Source: a virus. Taken from it: a stretch of DNA of 64,000 nucleotides. Numbering within the stretch: position 1 is the stretch's first letter; each line of letters begins with the position of its first letter. The stretch lies in IMG/VR virus record IMGVR_UViG_3300033146_005950, positions 1 through 64,000 of that record. One strand, 5' to 3'. The position numbers were made by a program, and so were the translations under genes. The notes under the pieces were generated by a model that did not search any database, had not been told where the DNA came from, and saw only the letters and a list, made by a program, of their open reading frames with translations. Below are positions 3,127-62,445 of the stretch, in pieces.

Positions 3127-3167
3127 TTTTTTATCATCCTTTTTATAATTTCATAAAATAGATCTGC

Positions 3168-3186
3168 GGGGGCTAAAATAACCCCC
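3168..3186 (-). terminator. hairpin downstream of RNR C-fragment
   Basis: GGGGG-N9-CCCCC. Confidence 0.4.
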
Positions 3187-3195
3187 ATTCTATTT

Positions 3196-4341
3196 TTAAC
3201 TACATTTACTATACCCACAACTCTTACAGCTTATACAGCCAGATTCATAAACCATTCTGTCACCGCAATCTGGGCATTTTTCAGTACTCTCTGCGTGTTC
3301 TTTAATATATTTTTTAAGAGTTCTTGCAATACTTTTATGAAATGCTGTTAAATAATTTCCCTTTAATAATTGTTCTACAATAAATTGAAGCGGAACAAAG
3401 TGTCTCATATTTAAACTAATCTGACGGCTTAATGCTTCAACTTCAGGAATAGAATGTGAACCGCCAACACGGTATTCATTATTGCCTGCAATTAAAATAT
3501 ATTCGCCTTTGTTCTTTTTCTTTAATTTACCAAATTTAACTGATTTTGGTATAAAAATATCTCCTTCAGAATTATAGTTCTCACCAGTAAAAACCTCATA
3601 AGGTTCATTATCAACCAAACCAATTATAACATAATATTGTTTTTTATTGACAGAAGTGATATTTACTTCACAATCAATTTTAACAGGTCTTTTTGGCGCA
3701 GCTCTATTTGCAGTTTCATTTTTTTCGCTTTCTTTATTTTCAGTTGTTAAAATACCGTCTCTTGAGCCGTCTCGATAAACAGTTACTCCAATGATACCTT
3801 GTTTATATGCTTCAATATAAACATCTGAAACTTTTTCTTTTGAAATATCTTTAGGTAGATTAATTGTTTTTGAAATTGAAAGACTTGTGTTTTTTGCCGC
3901 TCTGCCAAGCGCATTTAAATGTTCCATTGGTGTTAAATCAGTTGCAGTAATAAAAATAGATTTGTCTTCTTTTGTTAAAATTTTACATTTTTGACAAGAG
4001 CCTCCATTTTTTGAAACACTTTCTAATATTTCAGTTTTATTATTTGGGTAATGTTTATTTATATAATCTTCGAATACGCTATCTGTAATATAAACGACTT
4101 CATATTCACTGTTTGTTTTTTCGATTTTACGACTATAAGCTAATGCAAATACAGGTTCTATACCAGAACTTGTGTCTGCGATGTAAGAAATTGTATTATG
4201 CGAAACAATGCCATTATCTAATTTATAATGATGAACATCTTCAACTTCAATATCAAAAGTATGCTTAATTGATTTATCAAGTTTAGAAACTTTTGATACT
4301 TTATAATCGTCAAGATTTATTTTTCCTTTAAATTTTTCCAC
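3196..4341 (-). CDS. nrdJ: class II ribonucleotide reductase, C-terminal fragment led by C-intein (aa 1-49)
   Basis: FDIEVEDVHHYKLDNGIVSHN|TISYIA intein blocks F/G; then SSGIEP, SISKTINLP, GVTVYRDGSR, C-terminal CPDCG..CISCKSCGYSKC; GTG start with SD. Confidence 0.9.
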   Translation of the reverse strand: MEKFKGKINLDDYKVSKVSKLDKSIKHTFDIEVEDVHHYKLDNGIVSHNTISYIADTSSGIEPVFALAYSRKIEKTNSEYEVVYITDSVFEDYINKHYPNNKTEILESVSKNGGSCQKCKILTKEDKSIFITATDLTPMEHLNALGRAAKNTSLSISKTINLPKDISKEKVSDVYIEAYKQGIIGVTVYRDGSRDGILTTENKESEKNETANRAAPKRPVKIDCEVNITSVNKKQYYVIIGLVDNEPYEVFTGENYNSEGDIFIPKSVKFGKLKKKNKGEYILIAGNNEYRVGGSHSIPEVEALSRQISLNMRHFVPLQFIVEQLLKGNYLTAFHKSIARTLKKYIKEHAESTEKCPDCGDRMVYESGCISCKSCGYSKCS

Positions 4342-7741: not shown

Positions 7742-7787
7742 AAACTAAGCCGTAAAAATACAACTCTTTAGAGTTGTATTAGTTCAC
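7742..7787 (+). mobile_element. 46-bp non-autonomous IS200/IS605-type element (PATE)
   Basis: TTTAT|AAACTAAGCC...ATACAACTC-TTTA-GAGTTGTAT-TAGTTCAC; 45/46 identical to 50303-50348. Confidence 0.75.
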
Positions 7788-10366: not shown

Positions 10367-10399
10367 TGTCGTTTTCTCCTTTTTTTTAATTACAATAAT

Positions 10400-10435
10400 A
10401 ATATATAATTTTATTTTCCAAAATAAAATAGAAAA
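10400..10435 (-). promoter_or_regulatory. palindromic replication-gene (middle-type) promoter
   Basis: CTATTTTATTTT-GG-AAAATAAAAT-TATATATT; also at 12934, 16416 and 62347. Confidence 0.65.
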
Positions 10436-12886: not shown

Positions 12887-12933
12887 AATCAATTTCTCCT
12901 TTTTTTTATAATTGATTTTTTTAATTATATTAA

Positions 12934-12969
12934 AATATATAATTTTATTGTTTAAAATAAAATAGAAAA
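12934..12969 (-). promoter_or_regulatory. palindromic middle-type promoter
   Basis: Same motif as 10400-10435 with one mismatch in the arms. Confidence 0.6.
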
Positions 12970-13056
12970 ATGTATTTTTATGAGGAAAAAAATTGAGCAT
13001 AAATTGATTAAAAACCAAAATATGCTCAAAATATATAATTTTTTTAAAAAATAGAT

Positions 13057-16366: not shown

Positions 16367-16415
16367 ATTTTTGTTTCTCCTTTTTTATTATTGTTTTTTA
16401 ATTTTTCATAATATT

Positions 16416-16451
16416 AATATATAATTTTATTTTTCAAAATAAAATAGCAAA
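16416..16451 (-). promoter_or_regulatory. palindromic middle-type promoter upstream of uvsX
   Basis: Same motif as 10400-10435. Confidence 0.65.
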
Positions 16452-16604
16452 ATGAAAATAATTTAAATATTTTCATTTATTTTAAAGTCATTCTAAAGCT
16501 CATTTAAAGCTATCCAAATAAAAGTCGTATTATAATATTGTGAATATATCAAATCATCAAAAACTATCTCAGATTCTTCTTCTACTTAAATCTTACTATG
16601 TTTT

Positions 16605-17312
16605 TTATGATTTTCCACCAAATACAAAATCTCTTTCGGCGTAGCCAGGTTCTTGTTTTTTTCTGTTCTTTTTCTTTTTTGGCGGGGCAAAGACTTCCTG
16701 TATATATTGTTCTTCTGTTTCAATATTGATTAAATTATTTCTAATTTTTAATTCAAATAAACCTAACTCAAATATTGCGAAAGCATCTATTATATTATCA
16801 ATTGGGTTGCCTGACTTTTTATCAACAACAGATGGCAAAAATCTCAAATCAGGTTTATATAACGATTTATTATTATTGTAAGCAATTTCCATTTTAATTT
16901 TATCAGCATTACCTTTTCCACTGAAAAACTTTTTAATTGAAGGAACTGAGTATAATCTAAATGGAATTGAATTATTAAACAAAAGTCTTTTGATTAAACC
17001 GGTTGACTCTGCAATAGAAAATACTTGGCCAACTGCTGCAAAAGCATAATCTTCAATAAAACCATAATCATATTTAATATTATCAAAATCAGCCCATTTT
17101 TCAAATTCTTCATTCATAAATACAATTTTGTTATATTGATGATTAAAGTCTTTATTATTATAATATATTACATTTACAGCTCCACTTGCTGCAAATCGTT
17201 TTGAAGAAGTAAAAGTAAGCATTTGAATATCTTCTACTTCAAATGAATTATTAAGTCTTGCTTTTACAAACCCGGGAGAAGAAATTGAATTATCAATTGT
17301 AATAATGTTCAT
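16605..17312 (-). CDS. RuvC-like Holliday junction resolvase
   Basis: IITIDNSISSPG, FIEDYAF, IAESTGLIK, SIKKFFSGKGNADK, NIIDAFAI. Confidence 0.8.
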   Translation of the reverse strand: MNIITIDNSISSPGFVKARLNNSFEVEDIQMLTFTSSKRFAASGAVNVIYYNNKDFNHQYNKIVFMNEEFEKWADFDNIKYDYGFIEDYAFAAVGQVFSIAESTGLIKRLLFNNSIPFRLYSVPSIKKFFSGKGNADKIKMEIAYNNNKSLYKPDLRFLPSVVDKKSGNPIDNIIDAFAIFELGLFELKIRNNLINIETEEQYIQEVFAPPKKKKNRKKQEPGYAERDFVFGGKS

Positions 17313-22564: not shown

Positions 22565-23467
22565 TTAGTTTTCCCCTTCAATAAAAGACATAATTTTTAT
22601 TAGTTCATCAATTGATTTAACTTTAAGCGAAATATTTGCATTATATTCTTTATCTTCATTTTCATCAAAATCAAGATTTATATTCATTTTAGCTTGAGAT
22701 TTTTCGTTATTAATTTTAAAACTATATTCATCATAAGAAGAATATTCAGCACCCCTTTTATTAATGCGTCTGTATTTGCGTTCTGCATTGAAAATAACAT
22801 TACCCTCTTTACGATTTGCAAATTCTGATAATAAGCTTTTTCTATTTTTCTCATACATATTTTTCTTCATTTTCAGAATTTCATCATTATATTTATCCAC
22901 TGCTTTATTATAAAGAGTTTGAAGATTTTTGTATGTCCTAAAACACCTGCTAATATCATAACTTTCATAATTGCCGTCTTTAAAGTTGACAAAGTGGTTA
23001 TTAAATTTTAGCTTATAAGCAAACTGTTTTATTGTTATTTCTTTTTTATAATAATATTCTCTATCATATTCACCCTTTTCTATATTTTCTTTATACACTT
23101 CAATTATTTTATCATAAAGATTTTCCCAACCATTATCATTACCATAAGTTTCTTTTAACGCTTTTTTTACATTTATTTTTATATCTGACTCAAAATATCT
23201 GATCATAAAAGGATCTTGCATTGTAACATCTTGAATAATTTCAAAAACAACTTCAACACCATCAACAGTTTTCAGATGTTTTATATCTTCTTCTATTTTG
23301 TTATATTCCTTTTTCTTAATTTCATAATTTTTTTCTGCGTTTTCAATCTCTTTCTTAATTTTTGAATCTATATAATCATCAATTTTTTGTATTGCTTTGT
23401 TATAAGCAACTTTATTTACGTTTCTCATTTTTTCTACCATCTTGATTTCTTCTTTTGTAAGTTCCAT
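22565..23467 (-). CDS. hypothetical early protein
   Basis: First gene after early-promoter copy 2. Confidence 0.7.
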   Translation of the reverse strand: MELTKEEIKMVEKMRNVNKVAYNKAIQKIDDYIDSKIKKEIENAEKNYEIKKKEYNKIEEDIKHLKTVDGVEVVFEIIQDVTMQDPFMIRYFESDIKINVKKALKETYGNDNGWENLYDKIIEVYKENIEKGEYDREYYYKKEITIKQFAYKLKFNNHFVNFKDGNYESYDISRCFRTYKNLQTLYNKAVDKYNDEILKMKKNMYEKNRKSLLSEFANRKEGNVIFNAERKYRRINKRGAEYSSYDEYSFKINNEKSQAKMNINLDFDENEDKEYNANISLKVKSIDELIKIMSFIEGEN

Positions 23468-23468
23468 T

Positions 23469-23650
23469 TGGTAACTCCTTTGTTTTGTTGTTTTGTTATA
23501 TTAATAATATATAACAAATTTTAAGTTAAATATGCTTTTTTATAAAGAAAAAGTGTAACTTATTATAAATCAATAAGTTACAAAATGAAATTTTTTTGTT
23601 TTATTTTTCTGTTTTTTATAAAGTATTAAAAATCAATGGTTTATAAGTTT
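23469..23650 (-). promoter_or_regulatory. repeated early-promoter module, copy 2
   Basis: As copy 1; IHF-consensus sites at 23568-23580 and 23631-23643. Confidence 0.75.
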
Positions 23651-33316: not shown

Positions 33317-36300
33317 TTAATTAATCTCGTATTCAATTGTAATATGAATATATGAAACAGTACCAGAGACAGCCGTAACTTCTAACCAAACATATTCATT
33401 TTGATTTATTGCAATTCCACTTTTTGTTACTTCAGCCCCGTTTAAACCTGATGAAACTAATTGCCCATTTACAATTGTGTTTATTGCAGTCCCGACTGAA
33501 GTTCCAGATTTAATATTAAAAGTAACTGAAGAACCGTCTTTAACAACGGCTTGAACTGTATTTACTTTTAACGCTTTTGTTGTGAACCAAATGGGTATTA
33601 AATCTGTATCAACTGGAGCAGGTAAATAAATTGCTTTACTTAATAAATTTTTAGATTTTTCTAATTTATTATTTAATTCTGTATTTAAATCTGTTTGGTT
33701 CGTTATTATTCCGGTTATCCCACCCCAAGCAATGTTAGAAGATGCCCCGGGTGAAAGTACTTTTTTAATTGTAATTGTGTTTGCTCCTGAAAGCGCTTGT
33801 ATTTGAGCTGTACCACGGGTGCGCATTAAATGAACTTCAATAACATCATTTACTTGTAAATTTTTAATAATTGATGAAGAAGCGGAAGACCCAAAATTTG
33901 CCTGTCTCATATATAATTCGCCATAAGTACCCGAAACATCATTTGAATTTATTACTAATTTAGATGCAGCTTCAGATCTTACATTTCCACTGTTTCCTTT
34001 TATTGACACATTATAAGTAATTTCATATTGCCCCGCTTCTTGAATTTCAATCGTTCCCGCTGAAATTACTGAATACGCAGAACAAGTTGCAGATACGGTA
34101 TTAAATGGAACTTTTTGCCAAGTCCCGTCTAATGCTAAATCAGTATTATTATATAAACTTAAAACTTTAGGGTCTTCTTTAGAATCATCAACATATTTTT
34201 TAGTCGCGGGTTCATAATCAGATGCCGGAGTAAACGAAGCTGTATTATCTAATTCTAATACATTATTTTTATTTGCCTTTAAATTTAATGCAGTTTGTGT
34301 ATCATTTGAAATTGGTTTATTTAAATCTGAAGTATTATCAACATTGCCCAAACCAACATCAGATTTATTAACATTATGAGGATTATTTGTGTTTGAAATA
34401 TGACTTTGAATATTTGTGTTTTTAGGTTCATAATCAGAATCGTGATTATGATTTCCTTCTGCAACTTCTCCACTATTATTTCCAAAATTTTTATTGAAAG
34501 CGGTGTTTTCTGTGAAGTCATCTTTCTTTCCAGCTAATTCATTTTGTAAATCTGTTTGATTAGTAATATCCCCGATTATATCACCCCAAGTAATATTCTC
34601 AGCTGTGCCGCCTGAAATTGAAGGAATTAATATTTTTTTAATTGTAATTGAAGTTCCGTTCCCAGATGCTTTTACTGTATTACTTCCATCTACCACTTTT
34701 GCTCTTATTCTTAACATATCACTGTCATCTAAGTCAAAAATATAGCTGTATGATGCAACTGCTCCATATTGAGTTTTCTTTATAAATAAAGTATTTTCAG
34801 TACCCGGGATATTAGTGTAATTTTTTTGTAGCATTATTTTTACAGAAGTATCAACAGTCCCCGCTGAGGCAACTAAATCAATATGAAAATTTACTTCATA
34901 TTGTCCTGCATTATCTAAAGTTATTTCACCGTTGCTATTTGTGTAACCACCACCTGTAATATCAATAACATTAAATGGTACTGTTTGATAGTTCATAGAT
35001 GAAATTGTAAAATCATTAGTGTTCCTTGCTGCAAAAACATCCGGGTCTTTTAATTTATCGTCAACATATTTTTTAGTTGCAGGTTCATAATCAGCCGCCG
35101 GAACAAACGAAGTTGTGTTATTTAATTCTAATACATTATTTTTATCTGCTTTATTATTTAAAAGATTTGCGACTGCGTTGCTAACAGGTTTATTTAAATC
35201 TGAAGTATTATCAACATTGCCCAAACCAACGTCAGATTTATTAACATTATGAGGATTATTTGTGTTTGAAATATGACTTTGAATATTTGAATTAGCAGGT
35301 TCGTAAACTCCATTATGATTATGATTTCCTTCTGCAACTGTTGAAGCAGCCGTACCAAAGTCTTTATTAAAAGCACTGTTTTCGGCAAAGTCATCTTTCT
35401 TTCCATCTAATTCATTTTGTAAATCGGTCTGATTAGAAATGTTTCCAACAATTGTACCCCAAGTTGTATTACCATTGCTTTCAATAACACCTGCTGCAAC
35501 GATCTTTTTAAGATTTAACGAAACACCTTTTACAGTCGTATTAATTGAAGAAGTACCAACCGTTCTACTTGCGATTACCTTTAATACATCATTTTCGTTT
35601 AAATTTAATATTGCGGTTGCAGTACCGTGTGTACCATAATTTTTTAGTCTACAATATATTGTTGATTGAGTTCCATTCACATCTGAGCCATTTAATTGTA
35701 ATTTAGTTACGACAGTGCTTCTTGAACTTCCACTGGCTACTTCAAAATCAGCGTGATAAATTATTTCATATTGTCCATCTTTTAATATTGTAACTTCACC
35801 ATTATTATTATGAGAATAAGAATCATCTATTATATCAACCGTGTTTAACGGGATTGTTTGAAAACTACTTGAGATAGAAAATGCATTATTGTTATGCGCA
35901 AAATATACAGACGGCTCATCAACAGAATCATCAACATATTTTTTAGTCGCAGGTTCATAATCAGCATCTGGAGTAAATGAAGTTGTATTATCTAATTCTA
36001 ATACATTTGTTTTGTCTGCTTTTAAATTTAACGCAGTTTGTGTATCATTTGAAATTGGTTTATCTAAGTCTGAAGTATTATTTACTGCTCCTAAACCTAT
36101 TTGGCTTTTTGTCACTACGTGCGGGTTTGTTTGATTGCTAATATGACTTTGAATATTTGAATTGACAGGTTCATAAACAGTATCGTGATTATGGTTCCCC
36201 ATTGAAACAGTGTTAGAAGTAGTTCCAAAGTCTTTGTTGAAGGCTGTTTTTTCTGTGAAGTCATCTTTCTTTCCATCTAATTCATTTTGTAAATCTGTCT

Positions 36301-36655
36301 GATTGGTAATGTTGCCTGATATATTGCCCCAAGCAACTTCTTCGCTCAAATCAATTTCACCATCACCATCTTCATCATAAACCGAACCGCCAACATTTGA
36401 TTTATGATAAAAATTAAATGTGTTTTGTATTATTGCAATATAAACATCTGCACTTGTAGATGTTGGGTTATATGTGTTTAGTTCATTAGTAATTAAAGAA
36501 ACATCTTTATTACCACTAAAATTTATTAAAATGTCATCTGCAAATTTTCTTGTGTATAATAATCTATTTATATTTGTAGTTGAACCCGAAGTATAAAATA
36601 CTCCATCTAAATAAAGGTTTGAACCTGAAATATAAATTTGATCTACTCTTTCCAT
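33317..36655 (-). CDS. long modular fibre protein with three ~290-aa repeats
   Basis: Unit WG.I.G.I.NQTDL / HISN..NPH.V.K..VGLG.V.NTSDL.KP / YEPATKKYVD / C1q-BclA-like beta domain, three times. Confidence 0.8.
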   Translation of the reverse strand: MERVDQIYISGSNLYLDGVFYTSGSTTNINRLLYTRKFADDILINFSGNKDVSLITNELNTYNPTSTSADVYIAIIQNTFNFYHKSNVGGSVYDEDGDGEIDLSEEVAWGNISGNITNQTDLQNELDGKKDDFTEKTAFNKDFGTTSNTVSMGNHNHDTVYEPVNSNIQSHISNQTNPHVVTKSQIGLGAVNNTSDLDKPISNDTQTALNLKADKTNVLELDNTTSFTPDADYEPATKKYVDDSVDEPSVYFAHNNNAFSISSSFQTIPLNTVDIIDDSYSHNNNGEVTILKDGQYEIIYHADFEVASGSSRSTVVTKLQLNGSDVNGTQSTIYCRLKNYGTHGTATAILNLNENDVLKVIASRTVGTSSINTTVKGVSLNLKKIVAAGVIESNGNTTWGTIVGNISNQTDLQNELDGKKDDFAENSAFNKDFGTAASTVAEGNHNHNGVYEPANSNIQSHISNTNNPHNVNKSDVGLGNVDNTSDLNKPVSNAVANLLNNKADKNNVLELNNTTSFVPAADYEPATKKYVDDKLKDPDVFAARNTNDFTISSMNYQTVPFNVIDITGGGYTNSNGEITLDNAGQYEVNFHIDLVASAGTVDTSVKIMLQKNYTNIPGTENTLFIKKTQYGAVASYSYIFDLDDSDMLRIRAKVVDGSNTVKASGNGTSITIKKILIPSISGGTAENITWGDIIGDITNQTDLQNELAGKKDDFTENTAFNKNFGNNSGEVAEGNHNHDSDYEPKNTNIQSHISNTNNPHNVNKSDVGLGNVDNTSDLNKPISNDTQTALNLKANKNNVLELDNTASFTPASDYEPATKKYVDDSKEDPKVLSLYNNTDLALDGTWQKVPFNTVSATCSAYSVISAGTIEIQEAGQYEITYNVSIKGNSGNVRSEAASKLVINSNDVSGTYGELYMRQANFGSSASSSIIKNLQVNDVIEVHLMRTRGTAQIQALSGANTITIKKVLSPGASSNIAWGGITGIITNQTDLNTELNNKLEKSKNLLSKAIYLPAPVDTDLIPIWFTTKALKVNTVQAVVKDGSSVTFNIKSGTSVGTAINTIVNGQLVSSGLNGAEVTKSGIAINQNEYVWLEVTAVSGTVSYIHITIEYEIN

Positions 36656-36702
36656 TCATAGCCTTTGAAAAAATTAAAATTTACTAATTATATTTATTAT
36701 TA

Positions 36703-36734
36703 AAAATGGGGGAATTTTAATTCCCCCCCATTTT
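36703..36734 (-). terminator. intrinsic terminator
   Basis: AAAATGGGGG..CCCCCATTTT inverted repeat. Confidence 0.6.
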
Positions 36735-36747
36735 ATTTTAAAAATTA

Positions 36748-36951
36748 GTGAACTAATGCAACTCTAAAGAGTTGCATCTTCCTGTTTCATAGTCTAATTC
36801 TTACAGCTGGATTCAATGAATCCAGCGCAGAGGAATTAAACTCCGCAGGCTTAAAATCCCTGAGTCCCTCAGGTACTATTAATATTTATTATTTGTAATA
36901 ATTGTTAGTTCACAATATTATGTCATTTAGAAGCCTTAAAAGGCTTAGTTT
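36748..36951 (-). mobile_element. 204-bp non-autonomous IS200/IS605 element with a TnpB omega-RNA-like scaffold
   Basis: - strand: TTTAT|AAACTAAGCC..TACCTGAGGGACTCAGGGA..AAGCCTGCGGAG..ATGAAACAGGAAG-ATGCAACTC-TTTA-GAGTTGCAT-TAGTTCAC; ends shared with the two 46-bp copies. Confidence 0.75.
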
Positions 36952-36980
36952 ATAAAAAGATTTTAATTAATTAAATTTCA

Positions 36981-38777
36981 CTAATCAATATCAAGTATTA
37001 AAGTAGCAGCAGGGTTATTGCTCCAATTGCTTAATGCAATTCTAATTGTGTCACCCGCAGCAACTGACAAACCATTAAACTCAAATACAGTTGTGTCATC
37101 TGAACCACCGCCTGTATTTGTTGAAACGGCATCAGCGGTAGTCGTTGAAATAATTTCACTTGTATTATTTTTAAATAATTTCAAAGTTGAATTACTTGCT
37201 CCACCATCCATTTTAACTGAGATTTTATGAATTGTTCCTGCAAATGCCATACTCCAACCAGGATTTATTACTGAGCCGTCTGAAGTTCCGCCTGCCCAAA
37301 TTTCTTTATTTGCACCAAGTGCTTCATTTCTTGCAAATAAATATGTAATTTTAGCACCTGCTGTTGAAGCATCAACATAAGCTTTAACAGATTGCTGTGT
37401 AGGAACTGCTGTATCAGAATCTGAAGTAAAATCATCTTCATCAATAACTTCAAAACCTGAATCTGTTAAATTGCCATTTGAGTCTAAAGCAGCAAGATTA
37501 CCATCCGTTGCTCCGGTGACTTTATCAGCTTTAGAATCAAAATTAGGTTTATTTTGAATATAAGCATCTGAACTATTATCAGTCTCATCCCAATCAGCTT
37601 GTACATTTACTTCAGCACCATCAGCAATTCCATTTAATTTTGTTAACTGAGCATCGGTAACATAATTTTTATCTGTAACTGTTGTAATATCACCAGTATT
37701 TAATACAACAACACCAGTCTTTCCATTGACAGATGCAACTTGGTCTGTATTATCAATTTTATCCCAATTACTTCCATTATAAACAGCCCAATCTCCGATT
37801 TCATAAACTGTACCTGAAATTGTACCCGCTGTATCAATTACATAATAATCTCCATTTTCAGGTGAAGCAGGATAAGAGCCGCCTGAGGCATCTAATGTTC
37901 CTTTATATTGCAAACCGCCTAAAATTGTATCAGGCAATTGAGAAGTTGGAACTTTACCGTCACCACCTAATGTTGCGACTCCATTTGCAGATGCTTTTTC
38001 TGAAGTATCAATTTTATCAGCAAGTTCTGAAGTAATTTGTGAAGCAGTCCAAATATCAGAAGTACTTGAACCAGAGTCATTTATTTTTGCTCCACTATCA
38101 ACTGCGTCTCCATCTGAATCTAATACAGTAATGTTACCAGTTGTTCCTGCCGCATCTCTTACAGCATAATAAGCAGGCAATTCCCCACCTAATTTATCTG
38201 CATCTTCAGCACCGTCAACTTTTCCATTATCATTTGTGTCATAGACAGATTTTAACATATCTCCGTTACCAGAAGCAGCGTACGAATCATCAACATATTT
38301 TTTAGTCGCAGGTTCATAATCAGCATCTGGAGTAAATGAAGTTGTATTATCTAATTCTAATACATTTGTTTTGTCTGCTTTTAATGCAAGACCATTTGTA
38401 AGGTCAGTGTTTGAAGCATAGTAAGAAGCGTCATTTCCTCCTAAATTATATGCGTTTTCTGCATTATCAACAACACCAGTTTCATTACTGTCATATTGAT
38501 TTATTGTCATATCAGAATTATGCCACTCATTATAAGTAGTTTGTACCCAACCTGTATAAGTGTCATTATCTGAAGAAGGCGTAATTGTTGTGCTCGAACC
38601 GTCGTCAAGCACCATCGTTACAACACCACTTCCACTTTCATAATCGCTAATTATATCATTAGCATATTCTCTTGTAAAAATAAAAACATCTAATGATTCT
38701 GTGTCTCCATTTGTATAACTATGGCCGTCTAATGTTACGCTACCAGCAAATGAAAGACTAATCGCTTTTGTACCCAT
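36981..38777 (-). CDS. modular fibre/decoration protein
   Basis: GDMLKSVYDTND, ANGVATL..DGKVP.SQLP, V.SVNGKTG.V.L, KL.GIA.GAEVNVQADW fibre motifs. Confidence 0.75.
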   Translation of the reverse strand: MGTKAISLSFAGSVTLDGHSYTNGDTESLDVFIFTREYANDIISDYESGSGVVTMVLDDGSSTTITPSSDNDTYTGWVQTTYNEWHNSDMTINQYDSNETGVVDNAENAYNLGGNDASYYASNTDLTNGLALKADKTNVLELDNTTSFTPDADYEPATKKYVDDSYAASGNGDMLKSVYDTNDNGKVDGAEDADKLGGELPAYYAVRDAAGTTGNITVLDSDGDAVDSGAKINDSGSSTSDIWTASQITSELADKIDTSEKASANGVATLGGDGKVPTSQLPDTILGGLQYKGTLDASGGSYPASPENGDYYVIDTAGTISGTVYEIGDWAVYNGSNWDKIDNTDQVASVNGKTGVVVLNTGDITTVTDKNYVTDAQLTKLNGIADGAEVNVQADWDETDNSSDAYIQNKPNFDSKADKVTGATDGNLAALDSNGNLTDSGFEVIDEDDFTSDSDTAVPTQQSVKAYVDASTAGAKITYLFARNEALGANKEIWAGGTSDGSVINPGWSMAFAGTIHKISVKMDGGASNSTLKLFKNNTSEIISTTTADAVSTNTGGGSDDTTVFEFNGLSVAAGDTIRIALSNWSNNPAATLILDID

Positions 38778-43388: not shown

Positions 43389-43586
43389 TTAAATTTTATT
43401 AAAACGTTTTACATAAGTTCCATTTACTTCTACCCAACACCAGGTTCTCTGACTTGGAGAATTGGTGCTAAATTTTGGGGCATTGTATTTTCTAAATACA
43501 TTTGCTTGTTTTTTACTTTCATCAATAATACCTTCAACAGTTGTTGCTCCAGTATAAATTCCGTGGCTTAATCCTTTTTTAGCCAT
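43389..43586 (-). CDS. small early protein
   Basis: Start moved to MAKKGL; first gene after early-promoter copy 3. Confidence 0.6.
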   Translation of the reverse strand: MAKKGLSHGIYTGATTVEGIIDESKKQANVFRKYNAPKFSTNSPSQRTWCWVEVNGTYVKRFNKI

Positions 43587-43772
43587 TTTGATAACTCCTT
43601 TGTTTTGTTTTTGTTTTGTTATATTAATAATATATAACAAATATTGAGTTAAATATGCTTTTTTATAAAGAAAAAGTGTAACTTATTAAAAATCAATAAG
43701 TTACAAAATGAAATTTTTTTACTTTATTTTTGTGTTTTTTATAAAGTATTAAAAATCAATGGTTTATAAGTT
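43587..43772 (-). promoter_or_regulatory. repeated early-promoter module, copy 3
   Basis: As copy 1; IHF-consensus sites at 43691-43703 and 43754-43766. Confidence 0.75.
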
Positions 43773-43833
43773 TCTTTTCAATTAAAGAAGAAAAACACCA
43801 AAAAATGTTAAAAATGTTAAAAATGTTAAAAAA

Positions 43834-50302: not shown

Positions 50303-50348
50303 AAACTAAGCCGTAAAAATACAACTCTTTAGAGTTGTGTTAGTTCAC
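50303..50348 (+). mobile_element. 46-bp non-autonomous IS200/IS605-type element (PATE)
   Basis: TTTAT|AAACTAAGCCGTAAAAATACAACTCTTTAGAGTTGTGTTAGTTCAC. Confidence 0.75.
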
Positions 50349-62314: not shown

Positions 62315-62346
62315 TTTTTAACAGTCTCCTTTTTTTCAATTATTTA

Positions 62347-62382
62347 AATATATAATTTTATTTTTCAAAATAAAATAGAAAA
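62347..62382 (-). promoter_or_regulatory. palindromic middle-type promoter upstream of gp62/uvsW
   Basis: Same motif as 10400-10435. Confidence 0.65.
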
Positions 62383-62445
62383 GGTCAGAAATATTTTAAA
62401 ATATTCCCAACCTAATCTAATTTTAAAAACATTAAAAGTCTTTAA

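Follow-up and report, generated by a model that had tools for sequence, protein, structure and literature searches.

Our main finding is that a 204-bp element in a phage genome (positions 36748 to 36951, - strand) is almost certainly, judging from its sequence, a gene-less relic of an IS200/IS605 transposon of the PATE type that carries an omega-RNA scaffold, the guide RNA of the nuclease TnpB. The window analyzed here, that is, the whole stretch of 64,000 nucleotides, corresponds to bases 1-64000 of the 82,180-bp virus record IMGVR_UViG_3300033146_005950 of IMG/VR, whose estimated completeness is 43%. An initial annotation had described the element as an orphan TnpB omega-RNA-like cassette with no protein gene, in which nearly all of tnpA and tnpB was deleted and the scaffold kept. 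Both statements are borne out by its homology to tnpB-linked scaffolds, and to tnpB 3' ends in particular. No open reading frame (ORF) of at least 30 aa lies inside 36748-36951. The limits proposed for the element were also correct, as its ends are common to other copies, and all the motifs listed for it were found on the - strand where they had been placed. As for its history, we lean towards a relic observed at one stage of ordinary decay and not maintained by selection.

The last ~126 nt of the element resemble the 3' end of tnpB and the right end of elements that carry both tnpA and tnpB in other phage contigs. By blastn, 36748-36861 matched tnpB 3' ends and right ends in these contigs with 77-81% identity over 114-118 nt (E-values of 1e-18 to 6.5e-26). 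Nine further viral loci with the right-end hairpin and TTAGTTCAC were identified by exact matching in IMG/VR, and in five of them (L005, L006, L010, L011 and L012) scaffold and right end stand at the 3' end of a tnpB-like coding sequence, each ORF having the zinc ribbon CPECG and the ..DRDIHSAKNIL.. motif; at a sixth, L008, the contig is cut 100 nt upstream of the right-end motif, so that no more than the scaffold can be seen. When metagenomes were scanned with a conserved scaffold word, 16 loci were returned, 13 of which have the scaffold behind tnpB-like coding sequence, the others being L023, a scaffold without tnpB, and two unrelated chance matches. L010 is a complete element of ~1.9 kb, with a 132-aa tnpA that matches Pfam Y1_Tnp at 3e-38 and a 414-aa tnpB that matches OrfB_IS605 (1.5e-12) and Cas12f1-like_TNB (2.7e-10); L012 is 86% identical to L010 over 1,953 nt. 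L010 and the blastn homology support the view that the order of the parts follows that of the tnpB 3' end, omega-RNA and right end of IS605-type elements. One frame of the element still reads VPEGLRDFKPAEFNSSALDSL, which fits the TnpB tails of the family (..IPMExRxFKPVEFNxSA..). The old tnpB frame is broken by a 1-nt insertion that falls in an unpaired column, and the helices remain paired. Identical scaffold sequence borders different right flanks in different contigs, as expected for a mobile element. Further copies of the window's own scaffold subtype were limited to L009 in two exact IMG/VR scans and the metagenome scan. The right end had 0 matches in a scan of the collection of species genomes, and a TnpB protein scan of these genomes yielded two distant relatives only.

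The scaffold (~126 nt) is, as modelled, complete and structurally intact. Alignment A1 comprises 13 distinct scaffolds aligned with MAFFT, in which the window and L009 are the two rows without tnpB; in the remaining 11 of 13 rows, the aligned stretch directly follows tnpB-like coding sequence or forms its last codons. The RNAalifold consensus begins with a 5' hairpin. A long stem in three parts follows, topped by an apical hairpin that varies between scaffolds, and then come the right-end hairpin and 7 unpaired nt that lead into the flank. Single-sequence folds yield the same helices 2-4. On the - strand of the window, helix 1 (36859-36873) is CCUGAG-GGA-CUCAGG, the tnpB-linked copies having CCUAU-GGAAU-GUAGG. 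Helices 2-4 (36781-36849) form the long-range stem CCUG/CAGG and AGUUUAAUUC/GAAUUAGACU, capped within the same interval by the apical hairpin GCUGGAUUCA-U-UGAAUCCAGC; in the DNA, the inverted arms GCTGGATTCA-T-TGAATCCAGC occupy 36826-36806. The predicted fold is very stable, with -87.5 kcal/mol and z = -8.5 for 36690-36985 (-), a value equalled by 0 of 200 shuffles, and z = -6.07 for 36732-36876 (-) alone.

These helices are supported by compensatory changes. In A1, which rests on MAFFT alone, six pairs changed on both sides. A second alignment, A2, adds L035; it contains 34 consensus pairs, with 97.2% of cells paired as compared to 30-43% when the 3' partners are slid, and both-sided changes in 12 of the 34 pairs, values reached by 0 of 500 shuffles, keeping in mind that A2 was fitted to the model and that its pair counts lean towards structure. 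Two pairs changed on both sides in helix 1, and five of nine in helix 3. Between the window and the tnpB-linked scaffolds, compensatory pairs are present in helices 1, 3 and 4, and pair 128-145 of the right-end hairpin is G-C in the window and A-U in the others. A covariance model, R1, was built from tnpB-linked scaffolds without L035 and L036. It recognized the tnpB 3' ends of both, with 55.4 bits for L035 (TnpB 49% identical to the query) and 31.3 bits for L036 (30% identical). Its sole full-length match in the window is the 36748-36951 element, the 46-bp copies described below matching through their hairpin only.

Not all pairings proposed for the scaffold survived. The letters of GCGGAG..CTCTGC are present as annotated, but their pairing has no covariation support: the columns barely vary (in A1, GCGGAG differs only at its second position and CTCTGC, in a single row, at its last), and the pairing conflicts with the long-range helices 3 and 4, which show compensatory changes. 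A pseudoknot of GUGAACU, within the scaffold, with AGUUCAC at the 3' end was likewise rejected, as the variants TAGACT and TGAGCT, read from the alignment, keep nested helix 3 and not the pseudoknot. Readings of the element as a diversity-generating retroelement (DGR), an intron or a recombination site were dropped once the tnpB homology was found.

The two ends of the element have different fates. The right end (36748-36778) consists of a subterminal hairpin (36778-36755), within which lies the terminal hairpin GCAACTC-TTTA-GAGTTGC (36775-36758), and the rest of a tail of 10 nt (ATTAGTTCAC) that stops at 36748, the cleavage site. In IS608, 10 nt likewise separate the hairpin from the cleavage site. 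The left end (36914-36951) is eroded. Aligned with L009, it reads AAACTAAGCC, an outer stem AAGCC-TTTTAA-GGCTT, and then CTAAATGACATAATATT. The sister copy L009 (1504-1867) is also gene-less, with no ORF, and has both ends intact: TTTAT is followed by 18 nt (AAACTAAGCCGTAAAAAT), by a hairpin that is the same as the one at the right end, by the arm that closes the outer stem, and then by ~250 nt of interior, scaffold and right end. Its scaffold is identical to that of the window over A1 columns 9-127; the three differences are all in the region of the right-end hairpin, and two of them form the compensatory G-C/A-U pair. Compared to L009, the window's copy has lost the inner left hairpin and the 5' DNA guide (GTAAAAAT-ACAACTCTTTAGAGTTGT-GTATAT): the deletions took the inner hairpin together with the 8 nt that precede it, another 8 nt, and ~190 nt of interior. 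The AAGCC/GGCTT inverted repeat annotated as the left-end hairpin is thus present (36946-36931), but it is the collapsed outer stem and not a working left-end hairpin. The true hairpin and its matching DNA guide are retained in L009, L037 and L018, which read TTTAT, 18 nt, hairpin. Because TnpA needs this hairpin and guide, the window copy would no longer be excised or moved; from its sequence, it appears to be an immobile descendant of the family and no longer a working member.

The proposed target, TTTAT (36952-36956), which is also the expected target-adjacent motif (TAM), held up. It stands directly 5' of AAACTAAGCC in six copies (the 204-bp element, both 46-bp copies of the window, L007, L009 and L037), the DNA upstream of it being unrelated, and TTTAT is also the target of L018. 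No target repeat follows the right end, as for insertion without target-site duplication. The 4 nt that precede the left-end hairpin track the target: AAAA accompanies TTTAT (L009, L018, L037 and the 46-bp copies), and AAAG accompanies the TTTAC of L010, L012 and L022. Within the element, the + strand carries, at 36885-36913, a TTTAT and, 24 nt further on, the 10-nt right-end tail again in exact form (GTTAGTTCAC), itself preceded by a hairpin made of A+T only; a nested insertion in inverted orientation may have left this remnant. The same segment contains the 9-nt GTGAACTAA, which could pair with the 3' end of the scaffold, and a 14-nt string including GTGAACTAA recurs in a 5' untranslated region (UTR) of L007 (12018-12031).

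The record holds three copies that share TTTAT and AAACTAAGCC at one end and the hairpin with TTAGTTCAC at the other: the 204-bp element and two single-hairpin copies of 46 bp on the + strand, at 7742-7787 and 50303-50348. A further 46-bp copy resides in L007 (12492-12537). These short copies consist of the 5' part of the left end, one hairpin and the right-end tail; they follow TTTAT, their flanks are unrelated, and none has a scaffold. By their sequence, they are what would be left if the two 18-nt hairpin repeats had recombined or slipped against each other. The 46-bp copies are antisense to the neighboring genes. On the gene-sense strand, 50303-50348 is terminator-like (ACAACTCTAAAGAGTTGT then ATTTTTACGG), and 7742-7787 was not flagged as such. 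Other relics decayed differently: L037 (11398-11530) kept its left end and lost scaffold and hairpin, being left with an 11-nt right-end-like tail only. L006 has, on its - strand, a tnpB-less scaffold with a 61-aa TnpB tail (3179-3338, the relic as a whole spanning 3153-3338; 59.3 bits), with a full tnpB of a different subtype ~900 nt away. In L023 (whole locus, - strand), a cut contig, the scaffold without tnpB stands behind unrelated ORFs, one of which we take, by eye, to be ThyX-like. Since all relics were sought by way of the right end, the scaffold or a single left-end string, the proportions of relic types are not a fair sample.

Transcription of the scaffold was considered from both sides. 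The phage's own promoter-like motif, AAAAATAAATA, occurs at 20 sites in the 82-kb record, and 18 of these lie at most 120 nt upstream of a same-strand ORF start (at 18-94 nt), a zone that covers 5.8% of strand positions; the genes concerned include portal, tail-fibre and tail-spike-like genes. The initial annotation had placed a late-promoter motif, AATAAATA (36890-36883), just upstream of the scaffold. A motif does abut the scaffold, 8 nt before its first hairpin, but the claim, though plausible, is weaker than it was made, as the site, AATAATAAATAT (36882-36893, - strand), is a variant of the phage motif. This variant is found at two sites in the record, the element and 35 nt upstream of a 1112-aa tail-fibre gene. 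L009 carries a full motif, AAAAATAAATAA, at the matching place, directly before the scaffold, and the promoter-like motif stands exactly where the tnpB homology ends, which favors the promoter idea. The T4 late-promoter consensus TATAAATA is not used by this phage, only 2 of its 33 sites being upstream of ORFs. A second promoter-like motif of L009 (1583-1592, -) points outward through the left end, towards the neighboring gene, and the L009 insertion may supply that gene with a promoter.

On the other side, the terminator announced just downstream of the element is indeed there: a strong intrinsic terminator, GGGGGAATTAAAATTCCCCC then ATTTTTAATA (36700-36727, - strand), which lies 20 nt beyond the right end and whose stem (36727-36708) precedes a run of T. 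The insertion point is 3' of TTTAT, between the stop codon (36981) of a 598-aa tail-fibre gene and this terminator, which probably belonged to the tail-fibre gene before the insertion. On the - strand, no terminator-like site was found from the stop codon at 36981 to 36727; read-through transcription of the scaffold is therefore expected, and sequence features suggest that the scaffold is probably still transcribed.

These elements suggest the following scheme. A fossil of a non-autonomous IS200/IS605 transposon (PATE type) would be transcribed either by read-through of the tail-fibre mRNA or from the promoter-like AATAATAAATAT located 8 nt upstream, and either transcript would end at the terminator 20 nt beyond the right end. 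The guide of omega-RNAs is ~16 nt of transposon-flanking sequence, as described in a study of TnpB relatives (10.1101/2023.11.30.569447); by analogy, the transcript would carry the right-end flank TAATTTTTAAAATAAA (36732-36747, - strand) as a predicted 16-nt guide. The cassette would be inert alone and would need a matching TnpB, supplied within the cell by another element. With such a TnpB, it could direct the cutting of TTTAT followed by TAATTTTTAAAATAAA, the element-free form of the locus, as in the homing role published for TnpB (PMC10055086). TTTAY followed by the guide, with up to 3 mismatches, was found nowhere else in the 82-kb record, which leaves the element-free allele of the element's own locus as the one target to be expected. 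Present-day use of the RNA, by a TnpB produced elsewhere, is possible but rather doubtful.

Several results weigh against this interpretation of the element as a decaying transposon relic with its omega-RNA scaffold. No family of Rfam 15 reaches its gathering score in the 64-kb window, and in E-value mode 36400-37300 returned unrelated families only, PrrB_RsmZ at 22.5 bits (threshold 44) and Ref70 at 23.4 (115). This miss says little, as families are present in Rfam only if curated; the covariance-model search suggested in the initial annotation was negative with Rfam, but R1, built here from tnpB-linked scaffolds, matches strongly. To this can be added the bias of A2 towards structure. Neither tnpB nor tnpA was found in the 82-kb record (~43% of the genome), nor tnpB in the records holding L009, L007 and L004, all of which are fragments; tnpA and tnpB with the same right end, which that annotation proposed to look for, were present in other phage contigs (L010 and L012) and missing from the record of the carrier. 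No parental TnpB emerged either: none of the 120 TnpB tails listed reads FKPAEFN, and the single protein match of the 32-aa tail, P0121, is repetitive and unrelated to TnpB, and was rejected as spurious. The predicted empty junction had 0 exact matches in IMG/VR, and a search with the flanking tail-fibre protein yielded no close relative, its single match covering 35 residues at 69% identity. The promoter-like site of the element is a variant and not the full motif. Finally, the left half has suffered three deletions and the scaffold none, a one-sided decay which, together with the motif abutting the scaffold, could mean selective upkeep. One may even ask whether the element derives from a transposon at all, or is an independent structured RNA or control region of the phage that resembles insertion sequence ends by chance. 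The lack of an omega-RNA-type match in Rfam and the presence of other repeated non-coding cassettes in this phage would agree with such an origin, to which we nevertheless give next to no credit: it is already contradicted by the domains of L010, by the blastn homology to tnpB 3' ends (E-values down to 6.5e-26), by the tnpB frame remnant that can still be read, by left and right ends and a TTTAT target common to other copies, and by the R1 matches at distant tnpB 3' ends.

Selective upkeep is a more serious contender, which we still regard as unlikely. The cassette would be kept as a guide-only homing or exclusion device, with an omega-RNA made from a late promoter and a TnpB provided by the unsequenced part of the genome, the host or a co-infecting phage; element-free tail-fibre alleles of competing phages would be cut and repaired from the carrier. 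It would explain why a promoter-like motif is directly 5' of the first helix in both the window and L009, where tnpB homology stops, and why the left half suffered three deletions while the scaffold is that of L009 and the right-end hairpin changed by a compensatory pair only. Also in keeping with it are the tnpB-less scaffolds of at least two further lineages (L023 and L006), the tnpB elements with related scaffolds in five of the nine viral loci that share the right end, and the lack of a self-target in the 82-kb record. However, no TnpB partner was found in that record, the promoter site of the window is a motif variant, and the guide is low-complexity A+T. Retention is further disfavored by L037, which decayed in the opposite way, keeping its left end and losing its scaffold; by the scaffold subtype being known in two copies only, whose identity may mean young age; and by searches from scaffold or right end, which inflate the count of scaffold-keeping relics. 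The strongest form of this proposal, a guide-only selfish module fixed in the phage, immobile and gene-less, that uses a late-type promoter and a borrowed TnpB to cut element-free tail-fibre alleles in rivals, is in our opinion quite improbable. Were the remnant co-opted without TnpB, as a 3'-UTR stabilizer or terminator of the tail-fibre mRNA or as a small regulatory RNA, a very stable fold in the 3' UTR of a late structural gene would make sense, as would the terminator-like 46-bp copy at 50303-50348. We consider this very unlikely, given that a separate strong terminator already lies downstream of the element, that all helices are inherited from the tnpB-linked scaffold and none is new, that the other 46-bp copy (7742-7787) was not flagged as terminator-like, and that nothing indicates a target. 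Ordinary decay of a transposon relic remains the reading that we prefer; no sign of upkeep by selection was seen.

Gene-less IS200/IS605 elements bearing omega-RNAs are already published, and what is unusual here is the phage setting. PATEs, which are such gene-less elements, 'often encode' omega-RNAs that need TnpB in trans (PMC10055086). The PATE-like elements of Geobacillus stearothermophilus (Meers et al., PMC10055086) resemble the present one in having no protein gene, IS200/IS605 ends, an omega-RNA scaffold that extends across the right end with the guide in the flank, and a requirement for TnpB and TnpA from elsewhere. They reside in a bacterial chromosome, whereas the window element is in a lytic-type T4-like phage, has lost its left-end hairpin and hence is not a mobile PATE, and has a phage promoter-like motif abutting its scaffold. 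In phages, ISCaje1-4 were described in the T4-like Campylobacter phages CP220 and CPt10 (Timms et al. 2010, PMC2853527). L010, L012 and ISCaje1-4 are of the same transposon family, in virulent T4-type phages, ISCaje being likened here by description and not by sequence. L010 and L012 have the same right-end hairpin and tail (GTTAGTTCAC) as the window's element and a scaffold of the same architecture, and the left end of the autonomous elements has an outer stem around a hairpin that resembles that of the right end. L010, L012 and ISCaje encode TnpB with or without TnpA, whereas the window element encodes nothing, and the targets differ, being TTTAC in L010 and L012, ATTTT as reported for ISCaje2 and ISCaje3, and TTTAT in the window. 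A third relative is TldR, found in prophages, a domesticated TnpB that has lost its nuclease activity and has fixed guide RNAs (Wiegand et al., 10.1101/2023.11.30.569447). There too, a TnpB-type guide RNA is found in a phage genome outside any mobile transposon, but TldR keeps the protein beside a guide that targets a host promoter; the window has no protein, and its guide matches its own flank only. Full-text searches on TnpB and IS605 in lytic phages, and on TnpB homing in T4-like phages, brought up nothing on orphan omega-RNAs in lytic phages. A blastn comparison of the locus with 50,697 phage records gave no match.

The carrier is a large, lytic-type, T4-like phage. The window encodes a portal protein (PHROG 213, 2e-74), clamp loader, sliding clamp, helicase and several tail proteins, and the portal shares less than 30% identity with its counterparts in T4-type phages and large phages related to them. 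The element sits in a 325-bp gap that separates two tail-fibre-like genes of the - strand, one of 598 aa upstream (36981-38777) and one of 1112 aa downstream (33317-36655). These two genes have in common an exact 101-nt repeat (38284-38384 and 35925-36025), with further copies of 86-88% identity within the 1112-aa gene, so that recombination-prone repeat DNA surrounds the insertion. Two other kinds of repeat were observed. A non-coding cassette of ~150-180 nt is present at 2375-2550, 23462-23650 and 43583-43773, and in L009 at 331-466; the copies are 93-98% identical, are always just upstream of a - strand gene, and end with AAAGGAG and the start codon. It looks like a shared module of promoter and 5' UTR. 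A repeated intergenic element at 16394-16630 is 88.6% identical to L009 (8386-8613) over 237 nt, and shorter pieces of it are found in the window at 62330-62407, 12904-12971 and 10396-10435, and in the whole record (G000) at 76580-76646.

As it stands, the 204-bp element is an ordinary, though well-preserved, relic. It takes its place in a decay series of one IS200/IS605 lineage in phages, which comprises elements with tnpA and tnpB, gene-less omega-RNA elements, immobile scaffold-only relics, left-end-only relics and 46-bp copies, and it shows that omega-RNA scaffolds can outlast the nuclease gene with every helix kept. The family also offers a compact scaffold (~126 nt) with natural variants for studying how TnpB recognizes RNA. 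Should the guide-only selfish module be real, the tail-fibre module of the carrier would be inherited preferentially in mixed infections, and the cassette would correspond, as an RNA alone, to the homing endonucleases of T4-type phages. More generally, if orphan guides are loaded by the TnpB of other copies, they would act as RNA-only homing or exclusion modules, which would bear on the spread of tail-fibre, and thus host-range, modules in mixed infections.

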